From an uncultured delta proteobacterium (GTDB taxonomy: Bacteria > Myxococcota_A > Polyangia > Polyangiales > B10-G4), in the NCBI GenBank assembly GCA_963727445.1, contig CAVSGI010000008.1, positions 192,001 to 256,000 of the forward strand: a DNA stretch of 64,000 nt. The letters are read 5' to 3'. Below are positions 9,128 to 44,737 of this stretch, one piece after another (positions within the stretch are counted from its first letter, which is position 1; every line of letters starts with the position of its first letter). The translations under genes were made by a program, and so were the position numbers. Under the pieces are notes generated by a model. It did not search any database and had not been told where the DNA came from. It saw only the letters and a program-made list of their open reading frames with translations.

Positions 9128-9203
9128 GGGTCGTTAGCTCAGTTGGCAGAGCAGTGGGCTTTTAACCCATCGGTCGCAGGTTCGAGCCCTGCACGACCCA
9201 CCA
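9128..9203 (+). tRNA. tRNA-Lys (UUU)
   Basis: 76-nt cloverleaf: GGGTCGT/ACGACCC acceptor stem, CTTTTAA anticodon loop, GTTCGAG T-loop, encoded CCA. Confidence 0.97.
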
Positions 9204-24133: not shown

Positions 24134-24207
24134 GTCCCCATCGTCTAGCTGGCCCAGGACACCGGCCTTTCACGCCGGCGACGCGGGTTCAAATCCCGCT
24201 GGGGACG
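24134..24207 (+). tRNA. tRNA-Glu (UUC), CCA not encoded
   Basis: GTCCCCA/TGGGGAC acceptor stem, CCGGC-CTTTCAC-GCCGG anticodon arm, GTTCAAATC T-loop. Confidence 0.96.
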
Positions 24208-34237: not shown

Positions 34238-35065
34238 TCAACCTTCACCACCGATGTCTCTGTTCATGGAATCGACGAGCAGATCCGCCTCGCCGTCGTC
34301 ATGCCGCGTGATCTGTCGCGTGAGCCGGACGAGCGCGGGGCGGTGGTCGTAAGTGGATCCTTCAGCGCGAACCGTCGCGATGAGCTGATCCAACTCCTCG
34401 AGGAGCGTTCGGTGCTCGTCCTGCAGGACGCCGACGCGGCGGTGGTTGTCGACGCCCGTTTCCACGAGCACGTCGAAGAGCCCGCCCGAGCTCTCCTCGT
34501 CGGCGAACCGGCGGCTGAGCACGTCGCGAAGCGCCAGTAGATCTTTCTTGAGCAGCTCGTTGATCACTGTCGGACCGTCGGGCTGTCCGCTGTGCCACTC
34601 CCCGTTGGTGGCCGTGCGGATGGACAGGACCGAGACCTCGAAGACCGATGCGTTCTTGCTGAATGGGTGATCGAAGTCGAGCGAGAGGGTGATCCCCTCA
34701 CGCCTCTCCACCTCCAGCGTCATATCGGATCCATCCAGGCCGCGGGCGTCGATCAGACTGCCGGGTGTCAGTTCGAAGAGACCCGACAATCGCTCGTTCG
34801 GCAAGGTGGCACGCCGCAGGACTCGTGCCTCGTGTCGGCGCCCCTCAGGCAGCGCGGCGGTGAAGATCTCGCCACTCTGGCGCCCCTCCATCTCCGCTTC
34901 GATCGCGTCGGGGAGCGAACCGCTGCCCCCATGCACGTAGTGCAGGAGCTCCGTGCTCGCAGCCAGGACTTCGCCGGCGGCATCGCGGATCACGAAGCGG
35001 TATCCGACGACGTCTCCCTTCTGAATTCGGCGCTCCTCCGGTGGGGCGCCTTCGTCTTCTTCCAT
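34238..35065 (-). CDS. SlyD-like FKBP domain fused to a hemerythrin-like helical domain
   Basis: N-part LHYVHGGSGSL..AIEAEMEG, LDFDHPF, FEVSVLSIRTAT; C-part RFADEE..GGLF, LQDEHRTLL, RHDDGEADLL, DIGGEG. Confidence 0.72.
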   Translation of the reverse strand: MEEDEGAPPEERRIQKGDVVGYRFVIRDAAGEVLAASTELLHYVHGGSGSLPDAIEAEMEGRQSGEIFTAALPEGRRHEARVLRRATLPNERLSGLFELTPGSLIDARGLDGSDMTLEVERREGITLSLDFDHPFSKNASVFEVSVLSIRTATNGEWHSGQPDGPTVINELLKKDLLALRDVLSRRFADEESSGGLFDVLVETGVDNHRRVGVLQDEHRTLLEELDQLIATVRAEGSTYDHRPALVRLTRQITRHDDGEADLLVDSMNRDIGGEG

Positions 35066-35155
35066 CTCTCATCTCGCTCGGCGGCGGGGGGAGCCCTGAC
35101 TACTCGCCGCGAGGAGTGGAGGCGCGCTGCGAAGAGCAGCGGTAGGGACAGCTTA
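35066..35155 (-). promoter_or_regulatory. -10 element plus structured 5' leader, copy A (candidate cis-regulatory RNA)
   Basis: TAAGCT-6 nt-A-c-cgctgctcttcgcagcg-c-gcctccactcctcgcggc-gagtagtcagggct; homologous to 43416-43507. Confidence 0.75.
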
Positions 35156-35323
35156 ACCACCCCCGTGGGGAAAAGCCATCCAAGCCTGGAGGAGGGTCAG
35201 ATGGCAGCGCCGCCTCCCTCCACATGTGTCACACTGGACCATCACGGAGCCTCAACTCTCCCTCGTCACCCTCGAGCTCGAGGACCGAGTCCCCAAATGG
35301 GGCGTGACGAAGCTGGAGAGCAC

Positions 35324-35578
35324 ATGTCCGAAGTCTCGCTCGCTCCCTACATTCTGACCGACGCCAATGGATCGAATCCGCGGATCATGATCGCGGTCAG
35401 GACCCCGGCCGCGCTGGTGATGGTCGAAAGCCAGGTTCCTCACAGGTTCCTCGTCCGATCCCACAATCGCGACGGCGTGAACATCGCGATCGACCTCGCC
35501 CGGCAGTACGCGCGCACGCACAAGGGCCGGCTGGACGTGCTTTATGCGCAGATGGAGCGGATTCGGCAGTCCACATGA
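35324..35578 (+). CDS. Hypothetical protein, 84 aa
   Basis: GGAGAG RBS; MSEVSLAPYILTD... Confidence 0.55.
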   Translation: MSEVSLAPYILTDANGSNPRIMIAVRTPAALVMVESQVPHRFLVRSHNRDGVNIAIDLARQYARTHKGRLDVLYAQMERIRQST

Positions 35579-35747: not shown

Positions 35748-38481
35748 TCACTCTGGCGAAGGCGGCTCGGGCGAGGCGTTGCAGATCGCGCGCGTCACGA
35801 TGACGACGGCGCGGTAGCGAGACGGCGCGCGCATCTCGGCGCACTCCGCCTCGGCTTCTTCTTCTTCGCCGAGAGCGAGGAGGTTGCGACGGATCGCGAC
35901 GTGCTCGATGTAGCTGCCGGCACCCGATGGGTTGGTGAGATAGGTGCGCCACGCCTCGACGGCTTCCCGGTTGTGGCCCTCACGCTCGTGAGCCGCCGCG
36001 TCGGCGAGGATCTCGAGCGCCTGGGGCATCTCCTCCCGGGGCACCGGCTCGAGATCGTGGACCAGCGCCGGTGCGTGGGCGCCGACGAACCAGCGGACCA
36101 CCAGCACCGGCGTCACTTCGACCGCCAGCGGGTAGAGCTCGCGCAAAGGGTCTTCGGCGTCGGCGGCGATCAGGACCTCGCTCAACGAGCGGAGCAGGCG
36201 CCATCCATGGACGCCCGGGTCTCGACGCAGGCCATCGATCACCGCACGCGCGAGACGATCGCCGCGCGCGCGATCCCCCGCGGCATAGGCGCGCGCCGCA
36301 TGGTGGATCCGTCGCTCGGGCGCCCCGGGCGGATAGGTCTCGTCGACGAGAGCGTCGGCTTCATCGGCACGGCCGAGGAGCATCAAGGCGCCGACCCGGA
36401 GATCGATCGGTTGCCCTTCCTCCGACACCTCGGCGTAGCGCTTCTCGGCGAAGGTGATCTCGGCGGCGTAGCGCGTTGGCACGTCCGGGTCCGTGCGCAT
36501 CATCCGCTCGTAATCCCACGCCACGTCGAAGCGGCGCAGTCCGGTGGCGTAGCCGAGGGGGTGCAGAATGGCGATCTTGAAGCTGGGCGCCGATCGCATC
36601 ACCCGCTCGAACGTCTCGATGCCGGTGCGGTATCGACCCGAATGGTATTGGACCTCGGCCAGGGTGTAGCCGATGTCGCGATCGCGTGGGTTCTCCTCGT
36701 GAAGCGGGGTCAGGATCTCGACGCCGCGATCGTAGTCGTAGGTGAAGTAGGCGCTCAGGGCTTCGACCAGGGTGCGATCCCGGCGAGTGGTGGCGAGCTC
36801 GCCCGCCCTCTCGGCGGCGGCGAGGATGTCCTCGAGCTCCGCCGGCGCCCACGATCGCGCGAGCGCGAGGTAGTACCAGGCTTCGAAGAACTCCGGATCG
36901 CTCTCTACCGCGCGTTCGAGGTGCGTGATGGCGGCAGGCCACTGCTGCTCGGCGAGTGCGCGCGCCCCGAGGTCGTAGGCAGCGAGCCCCGACATGGAGT
37001 GGGTGGCCGCCGTGGGTGCGGTGGTCTGGATACCGAGGCGTTCGAAGGTCGCCTGCGCGAGCTGGGTCAGCGCCGCGTCCACGTCGGCCGCCTCCACGTG
37101 TACCTCGAGATCTTCGCGGTCTCCGAGTCCGCGAAGCCGAAGGTCCCCCGTAGCGCCGCTGGCTTCGGTGGCGACGATTCGCCCCTCGAGCAGGTGCGTC
37201 GCCCCCGCGCTCTGTGCGACGCGTTCCCAAGCCGGCGTGCTCGTCATGAACTCCGACACCATGCTCCGGAGATCCTGAGGCGACAGAAGCCGCAGCTCCG
37301 GCGCGTGACGGAGCAGCGTGGCGAGCACCTGCGCGAGTCCTTCGGAGCGCTCCGACGCGAGCCCTTCGACCTCGACTTCGAGGGGCGCGACCGCGAGCAC
37401 CAGAATCCTCCTGCGGCTCGGGCGCCGCGACATCCGGCGTCGAAGTGGAAGTCACCGGCGCCGGTGGGGACTGTCGCCCGACCCAGAGCAAGGCACCCAG
37501 CGCCGCGATCGCCGCGGCGGCGAGCGCCAGCCCCCACCAGGCGACGCCCTTCGGTCGAGTCGACCGCCCCGCATCGACGGTGGTCTGCGCGCCCCCGGCC
37601 GCGAGTGAGGCCGGCGGTGAAGTCGCGGTCGACGAAGCGACGCCCGCCGCCTGATTCAACGTCGCGGCGACCTCCGCCATCGGTGGGCGCGCTTCGGGCG
37701 CCGCGTCCAGCATGCGCGCGACGAGGTCCGCGATCGGCGCCTCGACGAGGCCCTCTTCGTCGAGTCGGGGTGGCGGCTGTCGGGTGGAGATGCGCTTCAA
37801 TGCTTCGGGGAGCGTGTCGCCCTCGAAGGGCAGGTCGCCACAGAGGAGCTCGTAGAGCGTCGTCCCGAGGGCGTAGGTGTCGGTGGCCTCGGAGGCGTCG
37901 CCACCTCCGAGGACCTCCGGCGGCATGTACGCAGGCGTCCCCACGATCAGCCCCGCGTGCGTCACCAGCGGGTTGCTCACGGTTCGTCCGTCGTCGGTGA
38001 GCAGGGGAGCCTCTTGCTCCGTGAGGGCGATGCCAAAGTCGACGACCTTCGCCTTCCCGGCGCGGGTCACCATGATGTTGTCGGGCTTGATGTCGCGATG
38101 AAGCACGCCGGCGGCGTGGGTCTCCACGAGCGCCGAGGCCACCTCGGCGATCAATCGGTAGAGGTCCGCTCGCGACAATCCAGCCGCGACTTCCTCACGA
38201 AGCGACCGTCCCTCGATCAGCTCCATCGCGATGTACTCGCGATCGTCGTGGACCCCAATCTCGTGGATCGTGACGACGCCTGGGATGTTCAGCGCCGCGA
38301 GGGCACGGGCCTCGCGGCGGAAACGCTTCCTGGCCACCTCGGATCCGGACACCGCCGAGTGGATCACCTTGATGGCCACCCGTCGTCGCAAGTCGGGGTC
38401 CTCGGCCACGAAGACCTCGCCCATCGCCCCGGCGCCGAGCGGCCGCACGATGCGGTAACGACCAATCTGGCCCTCCACCAC
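35748..38481 (-). CDS. Ser/Thr kinase with TM, TolB-N-like and TPR domains (frameshift near 37430)
   Basis: LGAGAMGEVF, VAIK, HRDIKPDN, DFG, GTPAYMPPE; TPR-like LERAVESDPEFFEAWYYLALA. Confidence 0.9.
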
Positions 38482-38518
38482 GATGGATGAGCCTACCAGC
38501 ATCGGGCGGGGAGCCGCC

Positions 38519-42946: not shown

Positions 42947-43007
42947 TCGCGCGCGCCGAGCTCCCAAATCACGATGCGCCCCGATGGCATTGGTGCTATT
43001 CGCTCCC

Positions 43008-43373
43008 ATGTCCAATCAGGAAGAACGCGACCGCGGCCAGCTCTTCGACAACCGAGACAAGCGCAAGCCGAGTCAGCCAGACATGCAGGGCAAGGGTCGA
43101 GTGGGCGGCGTGTCGTACGCCATCTCGGGCTGGATGCGCGAGGATCGATTGGTGGTCTCGTTCGAGCCTCCCCGGGCGAAGGGCAACGCACACCCCGTGG
43201 GCGAGCTCCGCGGGGTCCTGGACCGCGCTTCGGAGGGCGAGGACGGCCCGCTCTGGCGCGGCGACGTCTCCGGGGAGGACGTGTCTTTCGTCGTGCGCGC
43301 ATTCCAGAAGATCGGCAAGAGCGGCGCATATCTCACCCTCGAGCTGATGCGCTCGGGTGAGAGCGCCCCCTAG
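43008..43373 (+). CDS. Small beta-rich protein resembling phage ssDNA-binding/DUF736-like proteins
   Basis: GQLFDNRDKRKPSQPDMQG...YAISGW and GPLWRG...RAFQKIGKSGAYLTL. Confidence 0.6.
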   Translation: MSNQEERDRGQLFDNRDKRKPSQPDMQGKGRVGGVSYAISGWMREDRLVVSFEPPRAKGNAHPVGELRGVLDRASEGEDGPLWRGDVSGEDVSFVVRAFQKIGKSGAYLTLELMRSGESAP

Positions 43374-43415
43374 CCCGCCGAAATCACTTTCGTGGCGCAG
43401 AGGACCCAAACGAGC

Positions 43416-43507
43416 TAAGTTCCGCCCATCGCTGCCGTTTCGCAGCGAGCCTCCACTCCTCGCGGCCGGGTAGTTTGGGCTACCGACGCGCCGCCCGAGT
43501 GTGACTT
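43416..43507 (+). promoter_or_regulatory. -10 element plus structured 5' leader, copy B (candidate cis-regulatory RNA)
   Basis: TAAGTT-6 nt-A-t-cgctgccgtttcgcagcg-a-gcctccactcctcgcggc-cgggtagtttgggct; homologous to 35066-35155 (-). Confidence 0.75.
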
Positions 43508-44737
43508 TTGACTTCGAAACCCGCCGGCAACGACCGGCCGACCACCGCTGCGACCTTCGCCTCCCTCGAGCTCCCCCTGCCCCTGCTCCGGGCCCTCGAC
43601 GACGAAGGCTACGCGACGCCCACCGCCATTCAGCGGCAAGCCATCCCCCATGCCCTCGCCGGGCGTGACATCCTCGCCACCGCCCAGACCGGAACGGGCA
43701 AGACCGCAGCGTTCCTGCTGCCCATCGTCGCGCGCCTCCTGGAGCGCCCGGGGCGCGGCATCCGAGCGCTCATCATCTCCCCCACCCGAGAGCTCGCGTC
43801 GCAGATCGCCGAACGCGCCGACGCCTACACGCGCCACACGGAGATCGAGCACGCGGTGATCTACGGCGGTGTGCGTCAGCGGATCCAGGAGCGCGCGCTC
43901 CGGCGCGATCCCTCGATCGTCGTGGCGACCCCTGGCCGCCTCCTCGATCTGATTCAGCAGCGTGTCGTGCGCCTCGATGACGTGGACACGTTGGTCCTCG
44001 ACGAAGCCGACCGGATGTTCGACATGGGGTTCTTGCCCGACGTTCGGCGCATCGTGTCCGAGGTCTCCACCGACCGCCAAACGCTGCTCTTCTCCGCCAC
44101 GATGCCCCCGAGCATCTCCCGCCTCGCCCAGAGCATCCTTCAGGACCCGGTGCGCGTCGAGGTCGACCCGCCGGACGAGACGCCGGACGTCGTCGACCAG
44201 TCCGTCTATTTTCTGCGGAGCGCGGAGAAGCCCGCGCTCCTACTGCGACTGCTGCGCGGGCGGGACATGGACCGCGCGCTGATCTTCACGCGCACCAAGC
44301 GCGCCGCCGACCAACTGGCGGACCGACTCTCTCGCGACGGGCTCGGCGCCGACGCGATCCACGGCGACAAGTCGCAGGCGGATTGGGAGAGGGCCCTCTC
44401 GGCGTTCCGCAACGGCGAGATGCCGGTGCTGGTGGCGACCGACGTCGCCGCCCGAGGAATCGACGTCAAGGGCGTCACCCACGTGTTCAACTACGAGCTG
44501 CCCGACAGCCCGGAGAGCTACGTCCATCGCATCGGCCGAACCGGTCGCGCGGGAGCCGTCGGCAAGGCCATCTCGCTTTGTGACCCGACGGAGCGCGGCC
44601 AGCTCTACGACATCGAGCGCACCCTCAAGGTGCGCATCCCCCAGGGCGGGGAAGACGAAAATGGCGCGACCGCCCGCGCGCGTGAGGTCGTGCACTTCGG
44701 TGGAAGGCGCGGCGAGCGCAAGCGCAGGCGCTGGTAG
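43508..44737 (+). CDS. DEAD-box RNA helicase (RhlE-like)
   Basis: Q motif GYATPTAIQ, TGTGKT, PTRELA, TPGRLLD, DEAD, SAT, HGD, TDVAARGID, HRIGRTGR; TTG start. Confidence 0.96.
   Translation: MTSKPAGNDRPTTAATFASLELPLPLLRALDDEGYATPTAIQRQAIPHALAGRDILATAQTGTGKTAAFLLPIVARLLERPGRGIRALIISPTRELASQIAERADAYTRHTEIEHAVIYGGVRQRIQERALRRDPSIVVATPGRLLDLIQQRVVRLDDVDTLVLDEADRMFDMGFLPDVRRIVSEVSTDRQTLLFSATMPPSISRLAQSILQDPVRVEVDPPDETPDVVDQSVYFLRSAEKPALLLRLLRGRDMDRALIFTRTKRAADQLADRLSRDGLGADAIHGDKSQADWERALSAFRNGEMPVLVATDVAARGIDVKGVTHVFNYELPDSPESYVHRIGRTGRAGAVGKAISLCDPTERGQLYDIERTLKVRIPQGGEDENGATARAREVVHFGGRRGERKRRRW

Follow-up and report, generated by a model that had tools for sequence, protein, structure and literature searches.

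Genes and leaders in the window

The analysed window is a stretch of 64,000 nucleotides from the genome of an uncultured delta proteobacterium (order Polyangiales), in which two genes lie behind the same unit of a putative promoter and a leader. The two instances of the unit are referred to as copy A and copy B hereafter, and the genes and parts are as follows.

34238..35065, minus strand: gene under copy A; 275 amino acids, with a SlyD/FKBP-like N-terminal part and a hemerythrin-like C-terminal part
35066..35079, minus strand: purine-rich ribosome-binding region of copy A, paired in the predicted full-length fold
35081..35085, minus strand: invariant GCCGC of copy A, the 3′ arm of the predicted late helix, 15 nt before the start codon
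35092..35105, minus strand: early partner strand of copy A, from folds of leader prefixes
35106..35110, minus strand: invariant GCGGC of copy A, in the loop of the predicted early hairpin and the 5′ arm of the late helix
35111..35122, minus strand: CU-rich anti-Shine-Dalgarno (anti-SD) strand of copy A, common to both predicted folds
35125..35141, minus strand: hairpin P1 of copy A at the predicted 5′ end of the transcript (fold prediction)
35150..35155, minus strand: putative −10 hexamer of copy A, read in the sequence as TAAGCT
35173..35178, minus strand: putative −35 hexamer of copy A, TGGCTT, inferred 17 nt before the −10 hexamer
43393..43421, plus strand: putative promoter of copy B, read in the sequence as TGGCGC, 17 nt and TAAGTT
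43428..43507, plus strand: leader of copy B, with P1 (43429-43448), the CU-rich strand (43450-43461) and GCGGC (43462-43466)
43469-43484, 43490-43494 and 43497-43504, plus strand: inner hairpin, GCCGC and ribosome-binding region of copy B (fold prediction)
43508..44737, plus strand: gene under copy B; DEAD-box RNA helicase of 409 amino acids with a TTG start

A preliminary description of this DNA had listed TAAGCT (35155-35150, minus strand), TAAGTT (43416-43421, plus strand), a hairpin, an 18-mer, gtagt, gggct and gccgcc..gag as the common parts of the two leaders, and all of them were found where it had placed them. The 18-mer is identical in the two copies (35123-35106 on the minus strand and 43449-43466 on the plus strand), and the hairpin has the same stem, cgctgc/gcagcg, with the loop tcttc in copy A and cgtttc in copy B. 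The inner hairpin of copy A is degraded. No RNA run was among the sequencing runs listed, and in small shares of two DNA sequencing runs, no listed variant fell inside leader A or B.

The assignment of the gene under copy A is based on matches below the curated cut-offs: its relative P0003 matches NCBIfam PRK15095 (E 3.7e-4), and the gene itself matches Pfam Hemerythrin (E 4.8e-4). The hemerythrin-like domain replaces the usual tail of a SlyD/FKBP-like protein (34238-35065, minus strand). This gene is 29% identical to a paralog on contig C25, and a single relative of similar length (89%) was found among 5488 candidates. The helicase under copy B has the Pfam DEAD and Helicase_C domains; its nearest NCBIfam models are CshA and RhlE, with scores below their cut-offs.

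Several other features were observed in the window. An open reading frame (ORF) of 84 amino acids (35324-35578, plus strand), without a convincing Pfam match, is divergent from the copy A promoter, and one of 127 amino acids (42990-43373, plus strand), consisting of two similar halves and having no Pfam match, lies directly upstream of copy B. On the minus strand between 35748 and 38502, a Ser/Thr kinase-like ORF (36361-38502) overlaps a TPR-like ORF (35748-37433) in a different frame; the translations suggest a single frameshifted kinase-TPR gene. Two tRNA genes (9128-9200 and 24134-24207, both on the plus strand) are the sole Rfam matches in the window.

Copies of the promoter-leader unit

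The likeness between copies A and B is beyond chance. The 18-mer occurs exactly twice in the host genome of 9.47 Mb (68.8% G+C), the genome-wide BLASTN comparison of copy A with copy B gives an E of 4.6e-9, and a profile built from the two sequences has three matches in this genome at E ≤ 1.6e-11, the next match having an E of 0.62. The additional match is a third copy, C (G000:C9:214369-214461), and a covariance model based on five copies returns exactly A, B and C in the host genome at E ≤ 2. A short loose core alone is not significant, since a 15-mer with up to two mismatches is matched twice in the window against an expectation of 0.93. The proposal that the unit is a shared promoter with a structured 5′ leader, and not a generic repeat, stands: the host genome contains three copies in 9.47 Mb, all in the sense orientation and 5′ of start codons, and the leader is not an interspersed (REP-like) repeat.

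The sample of the host's order comprised 401 genomes, and copies were found in four of them. In total, six copies exist in four genomes of three families: three in the host genome and one in each of three other genomes. Each is in the sense orientation and immediately precedes a start codon. Two of the 401 genomes contain the exact core pattern, and the motif was not found in an 86%-complete genome of the same genus. Copy D (genome G002, family f2) was the sole find by BLASTN among 40 relatives, and the model built from A, B and C alone gives it 56.8 bits. Copy E (G138, family f22) has 23.1 bits, which is within the chance range, and was one of 38 places in 150 genomes; it is also the one of 28 new loci that has a small-protein gene (described below), directly downstream and in sense, a coincidence that rough arithmetic puts at about 1 in several hundred. 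Copy F (G059, family f22) emerged from 31 helicase leaders with a profile E of 2.2e-7, the next new match having 0.33, and its 24.5 bits were the best among 24 loci. The genome-wide model search of f22 missed copy F; thus, diverged copies can escape the searches, and the counts are minimum values.

A seventh instance lies in a fifth genome, G005. Its leader is longer and has no model match, and its diverged core consists of an early hairpin with GCGGC in the loop and, further downstream, GCCGC. A pattern drawn up after inspection of this leader occurs in all four members of the helicase clade concerned, in 1 of 27 other helicase leaders and in none of the 47 RRM leaders examined. Its background rate is 0.003 per 120 nt; since the pattern is post hoc, this result is suggestive only.

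Wider searches gave little more. Exact-core matches were gathered from GTDB (99), metagenomes (at least 120) and viral stretches (19). Among the 238 exact-core matches listed, only one, L147, scored as a full motif (113.9 bits, the next 18.6), and it is identical to copy D. No new copy was found in a phylum sample of 150 genomes, and no full copy in phages, plasmids and the 19 viral stretches. A looser pattern, applied to 231 genomes, matched 66 of them, mostly as background, and none of the 44 loci read had the right context. Several covariance-model matches were rejected: those in G025 (31.8 bits) and G033 (34.8 bits) are antisense in coding regions, from which it follows that scores up to about 35 bits arise by chance here, and those in G118, G098 and G456 were judged as chance from their context. 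A match in G091 (27.8 bits), before an epimerase-like gene, is at most a candidate, and a by-eye likeness of an RRM leader in G052 to the motif was unsupported by the models.

Promoter layout and conservation

Three features were found in the alignment of the copies. One is the promoter layout: in each of the six copies, a TGGCGC-like hexamer is separated by exactly 17 nt from a hexamer that starts with TA and, in five copies, has T at position 6. A strict sigma-70 consensus scan finds the promoter of neither copy A nor copy B. The predicted transcription starts are at 35143 (copy A) and 43428 (copy B). Another is the core ACUCCU(C/G)GCGGC, which is invariant in the six copies, while P1 and the inner hairpin vary. 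GCGGC is present in all seven instances (the six copies and G005), and GCCGC is located 13–19 nt before the start codon in all seven. The last feature is the overall conservation: the leaders of copies B, D and F are 0.68–0.72 identical, as compared with 0.46–0.56 for the upstream flanks and 0.51 for shuffled leaders, and the fourfold sites of the helicases behind them are 0.48–0.54 identical against 0.43–0.46 expected at saturation. Thus, the leader is conserved beyond neutral expectation while the fourfold sites are near saturation. By its sense orientation, its position 5′ of genes and its fixed distances in all six copies, it also appears to fit the general kind of a cis-regulatory 5′ leader. 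We conclude that the copies form a real, selected and uncatalogued promoter-leader family, which is rare and lineage-limited.

Genes under the leader

The genes under the six copies are three DEAD-box helicases (B, D and F), a small protein (C and E) and the SlyD-like gene (A). The preliminary description had the unit shared by two unrelated genes. That A and B share it is right, but the picture is incomplete: the host genome has the third copy, C, and five of the six copies front DEAD-box or DEAD/RRM-linked loci. Copy C precedes a 96-amino-acid small protein, followed by an RRM protein and then a second DEAD-box helicase, and behind copy D come a DEAD-box gene and then the gene of this small protein. 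Identity among the B, D and F helicases is 67%; a quick tree built from 58 helicases of the order places these three on one side of a branch (SH-aLRT 99), with the G005 helicase as the sister of this clade (SH-aLRT 99).

The small protein (L001:5068-5358, which is G000:C9:214467-214757) has an invariant GWPGT motif. The proteins under C and E have no NCBIfam match and no usable Atlas match. The protein was found in 111 of the 401 genomes of the order, a tally that includes two unpublished genomes, and it is a candidate new family of RNA-metabolism or cold-shock proteins. Of 30 loci with its gene, 13 have an RRM gene within about 1.5 kb, 3 have a DEAD-box gene there and 3 have the motif, most of the loci being without the motif. 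A search of the leaders of 47 RRM genes from the order did not find the motif.

At copy E, the nearest GTG opens a frame of 14 codons that is out of register with the downstream small-protein match (L354:1595-1890), and the frame of this match has no ATG or GTG start; the mismatch may reflect a frameshift, an assembly error, or a CTG or other start. Copies C and D precede different genes with nearly the same first codons (L001:5068-5079 and L003 about 1562-1573), as though the leader and the start of the reading frame had moved together. The leader of copy A is closest to that of copy C (0.82 identity), and copy A therefore looks like a lineage-specific duplicate. Prolyl isomerases are reported to be cold-inducible (PMC3179164). 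This would fit the SlyD-like gene under copy A, without showing co-regulation.

Different leaders were observed before related genes. In family f17, a different long conserved leader lies before the DEAD-box genes of L409, L411, L418, L419, L422, L424, L425 and L427, and the subgroups L406/L414/L416/L423, L412/L413 and L408/L410 each have their own helicase leader; these are possible further motifs. In genus g42, conserved stacked hairpins lie before RRM-small protein operons (L039/L390 and L392), and these RRM leaders have a partial likeness to the 3′ half of the motif that is unsupported by the models. At L091 (G028:C1, about 113766-114030), an RRM gene seems to begin about 200 nt past the 3′ end of a 16S rRNA gene, which is possibly a mis-assembly.

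Predicted folds of the leader

P1 is predicted in full-length A–D and F and in prefixes of E, with loops of 4–6 nt. Its stem is extended in D and its sequence is replaced in F, and both D and F use G-U pairs. These variations in the loop, in D and in F favour the view that P1 is an RNA hairpin rather than a DNA operator.

Downstream of P1, two mutually exclusive folds are predicted. In prefixes of 55–60 nt, an early hairpin is the minimum-energy fold in all six copies and in G005; in copy A, the CU-rich strand pairs in these prefixes with the early partner strand (duplex −10.9 kcal/mol), and at full length with the ribosome-binding region. In full-length A–D and F, a long stem is predicted, built from a GCGGC/GCCGC helix and from pairing of the CU-rich strand to the purine tract that precedes the start codon, and this late fold is about 11–18 kcal/mol more stable than the early one. 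The second stem of the preliminary description (ctcg/cgag, flanked by act/agt and gcc/ggc) corresponds to the early partner pairing. It is therefore right for the prefixes, as their minimum fold, but not for the full leaders of A–D, in which the CU-rich strand pairs with the ribosome-binding region. Copy E and G005 differ from the others: at full length, the minimum of copy E is a third fold, still covering the ribosome-binding site (RBS), with a barrier of only 6 kcal/mol, and the minimum of the whole G005 leader keeps the early hairpin (−17.7 kcal/mol, with a sequence of its own). For A–D and F, the barrier from the early to the late fold is 10–13 kcal/mol at 37 °C and 11–17 kcal/mol at 10 °C, these values being heuristic path estimates and upper bounds.

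The predicted occlusion also bears on the claim that both genes are without a strong Shine-Dalgarno (SD) sequence. An SD-like tract is in fact present in A and B, with a predicted pairing to the genome's own 16S tail of −7.0 and −7.8 kcal/mol (−5.2 to −7.8 kcal/mol for the purine tracts of A–F), and it is better described as an SD-like tract with predicted occlusion than as a weak one. Opening the region −15 to +3 costs 8.4–15.9 kcal/mol in the six copies. In all six, this cost is above that of controls with shuffled upstream sequences (10, 2, 1, 2, 2 and 5 of 150 shuffles being as high for A–F, respectively), and these six tests are not independent because the copies are related. For copy A, the cost is 12.5 kcal/mol at 37 °C against 8.8 ± 2.6 in the shuffles, and for copy B it is 12.0 against 6.8 ± 2.2. 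RRM leaders of the order that are unrelated to the motif also fold over the RBS (10 folds inspected).

The evidence for the two pairings themselves is mixed. In F and G005, which have diverged the most of all instances, the CU-rich strand of the same leader is the best match for the early partner (rank 1 of 7, tied in G005), and in copy F a changed CU-rich strand, which still pairs with the RBS side, is matched by a changed early partner. The late helix between the CU-rich strand and the RBS has no cognate preference (own rank 2–7 of 7), so that any other CU-rich strand would fit as well. The stability of the early hairpin does not exceed that of shuffled sequences (z from −1.51 to +0.04; −0.75 for copy A). 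The z of the whole-leader fold ranges from −3.77 (D) to −0.33 (F) and is −2.84 for copy B; the signal vanishes for A and B when flanks are included. No covariation (0 pairs) was found among A, B and C; in the five model-fitted copies, 2 of 24 pairs change on both sides, and 33 of 500 shuffles reach as many. The GCGGC/GCCGC pairs never vary.

Two other regulatory devices are disfavoured by the predictions. The predicted opening cost falls steadily with temperature (in copy A, for example, from 18.5 to 8.5 kcal/mol between 10 and 55 °C), and at 55 °C it is still 6.7–8.5 kcal/mol; the unpaired probability of −15 to +3 is nearly flat from 10 to 55 °C in A–C, with a modest rise in D. A heat-melting RNA thermometer is disfavoured because of this nearly flat access. 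A transcription attenuator is likewise disfavoured, because only copy B has a weak terminator-like site, of 5 pairs; none is present on the strand of copy A, and no U-run follows the late stem in C–F.

Comparison with known RNAs

The motif belongs to no catalogued RNA family (Rfam 15), in agreement with the first impression that the family was unfamiliar. In the window, only the two tRNAs reach the gathering threshold, and no family matches the copies above it; at the six loci with A, C, D, E and F and the G005 leader, no Rfam match at E ≤ 5 lies on a copy. The sole match of copy B is to c4-a1b1 (RF03163), with 11.6 bits against a cut-off of 46.7. The likeness covers only the −10 region and P1, where both have a −10-like hexamer and, after it, a first hairpin of the GUCGCUGC type, while the second hairpin is unaligned and the a1/b1 loops do not match. 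The cognate C4 antisense RNA (RF01695) was not found at E ≤ 1 in the host genome assembly (86% complete; 150 candidates scored). Membership of the leader in c4-a1b1 was rejected on the score, the unmatched second hairpin and the missing C4 RNA. A literature search found no description of the motif in the portions of the sources covered, which were the main text of PMC2864571, PMC5737381, PMC11109978 and PMC8632094 among others and, of the supplements, that of PMC2864571 only, for two family names.

Beyond c4-a1b1, four kinds of RNA come closest. The E. coli cspA 5′ leader is a cold thermosensor with two alternative structures, one of which is better translated (PMC7873864). The present leader would resemble it through two exclusive folds that differ in RBS access, which are predicted in all six copies but with an early hairpin that is not above shuffles, and both are on RNA-chaperone genes; it differs in having no sequence or Rfam match, a length of 80–90 nt, an explicit anti-SD strand, and copies on several unrelated genes. 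The E. coli deaD 5′ UTR (838 nt) mediates autoregulation through mRNA stability and Rho termination (PMC7430678), and the Caulobacter rhlE 5′ UTR (186 nt) probably acts on mRNA stabilisation or translation (PMC5472812). What makes these cases comparable is that a DEAD-box helicase is controlled through its 5′ UTR, with indications that it represses itself, whereas the anatomy here, as modelled, points to RBS occlusion in a compact element. The plant DEAD element in DRH1 is a structured RNA that senses the activity of its own helicase in a negative loop (10.64898/2026.01.23.701338); it is eukaryotic and acts on splicing, so that it serves as an analogy only. The Chlorobi-RRM motif (RF01697) is a candidate cis-regulatory motif named for RRM genes (PMC2864571), and it differs in taxon and sequence and has no Rfam match on any copy.

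Discussion

Based on the conservation, the positions and the predicted folds, we consider it highly probable that the unit contains a functional structured cis-leader, and probable, from the models, that this leader acts on the RBS. Its anatomy can be hypothesised to be that of a translational switch, in which one anti-SD strand can pair with either of two partners but not with both, and the RBS is free while the earlier pairing lasts; the computational support for this is mixed. The reading that we tentatively prefer, while placing it slightly below an even chance, is a two-fold cold/chaperone switch giving cold induction with negative feedback. For this reading the sequence, copy number, position, conservation and gene association are observed, both folds are predicted, and we infer the transcription start, the switching and the signal. 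Cold induction with negative feedback is favoured because most of the genes under the leader encode RNA chaperones or lie next to such genes.

The switch would operate as follows. A housekeeping-type promoter would start the transcript, whose first 80–90 nt would be a cis-acting translational leader, with P1 capping the 5′ end and probably protecting it. During synthesis, the CU-rich anti-SD strand would pair with the purine strand just downstream, forming the early hairpin with GCGGC in its loop and leaving the RBS free. Once GCCGC and the RBS have emerged, GCGGC would pair with GCCGC, the CU-rich strand would shift onto the RBS, and translation would be shut. The output would be set by the speed of the early-to-late conversion: slow conversion, in the cold or with scarce RNA chaperones, would mean on, and fast conversion, in the warm or with the encoded DEAD-box and RRM proteins active, would mean off. 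If the estimated barriers are near right, conversion should slow strongly in the cold, and RNA chaperones should speed it. Copy A would be a duplicate that brought the SlyD-like foldase under the same control.

Of the alternatives, all of them unlikely, the most probable is that the core ACUCCU(C/G)GCGGC is a binding site for the RRM protein, the small protein or the helicase tail, so that binding, and not folding kinetics, gates the RBS. The invariance of the core in all six copies while P1 and the inner hairpin change would be explained in this way, as would the GCGGC/GCCGC pairs that never vary, and the candidate ligands are at hand: copy C fronts the small protein-RRM-DEAD run, and an RRM gene accompanies the small-protein gene in 13 of the 30 loci. 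Such invariance would, however, also be expected if one strand serves two helices, and the motif was not found in front of the 47 RRM genes searched.

A static or melting structure is somewhat more improbable. Here the role of P1 would be to stabilise the mRNA, the long stem would either dampen translation or be opened by heat or a helicase, and no functional early fold would exist. The early hairpin, being not better than shuffles, and the steady drop of the predicted opening cost with temperature are what this reading would lead one to expect. It leaves unexplained why the early partner in F and G005 best matches the CU-rich strand of the same leader, and the 6.7–8.5 kcal/mol still needed at 55 °C and the near-flat unpaired probability are unlike a melting thermometer.

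The remaining two explanations are very unlikely. In a DNA-level cassette, P1 would be a palindromic operator accompanying the promoter and another protein site, and RNA folding would be incidental; the promoter layout is indeed the best-kept feature and P1 is a palindrome at the predicted start, yet the half-sites of P1 are 4, 5 or 6 nt apart, F has a different P1 sequence, G-U pairs occur in D and F, and the element keeps a fixed distance to the start codon. Least probable is that the cassette was recently duplicated or transferred with its leader under no selection, or that it is a mobile or phage-type element, for example a c4 target: the patchy occurrence (4 of the 401 genomes, and not found in the 86%-complete same-genus genome), the weak c4-a1b1 match of copy B and the degraded inner hairpin of copy A are outweighed by a leader conserved where synonymous sites are near saturation, by the lack of a full copy in the 19 viral stretches, phages or plasmids, and by a genome in which no C4 RNA was found.

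Returning to the cold/chaperone switch, its possible meaning depends on whether the switch holds. The element is rare, its copies are limited to uncultured-looking lineages of a single order, and leader motifs missing from the catalogues are common; for these reasons it would be unsurprising otherwise. The element is very likely a cis-regulatory RNA of RNA-chaperone loci, and it probably acts at their ribosome-binding site. Only a few cases have shown how DEAD-box helicases and RRM proteins are regulated in bacteria, and most of them involve long UTRs with diffuse determinants. The present element is about 85 nt long, with a defined anti-SD strand, two candidate partners and seven natural variants, and because of this compactness, the defined strand and the variants, the feedback and cold-trap models are directly testable by a few point mutants. 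The leader family also shows a regulon forming by the copying of a promoter-leader unit. A more far-reaching idea, which we regard as rather unlikely, is that the leader is a kinetic sensor of RNA-chaperone activity, in which the cell's DEAD-box and RRM proteins would catalyse the refolding that closes the RBS, and the promoter-sensor module, copied onto unrelated genes, would make a small regulon without a transcription factor. If this were true, bacteria would have their own equivalent of the plant DEAD element, and the leader would serve as a portable gauge of the RNA refolding capacity of living cells.
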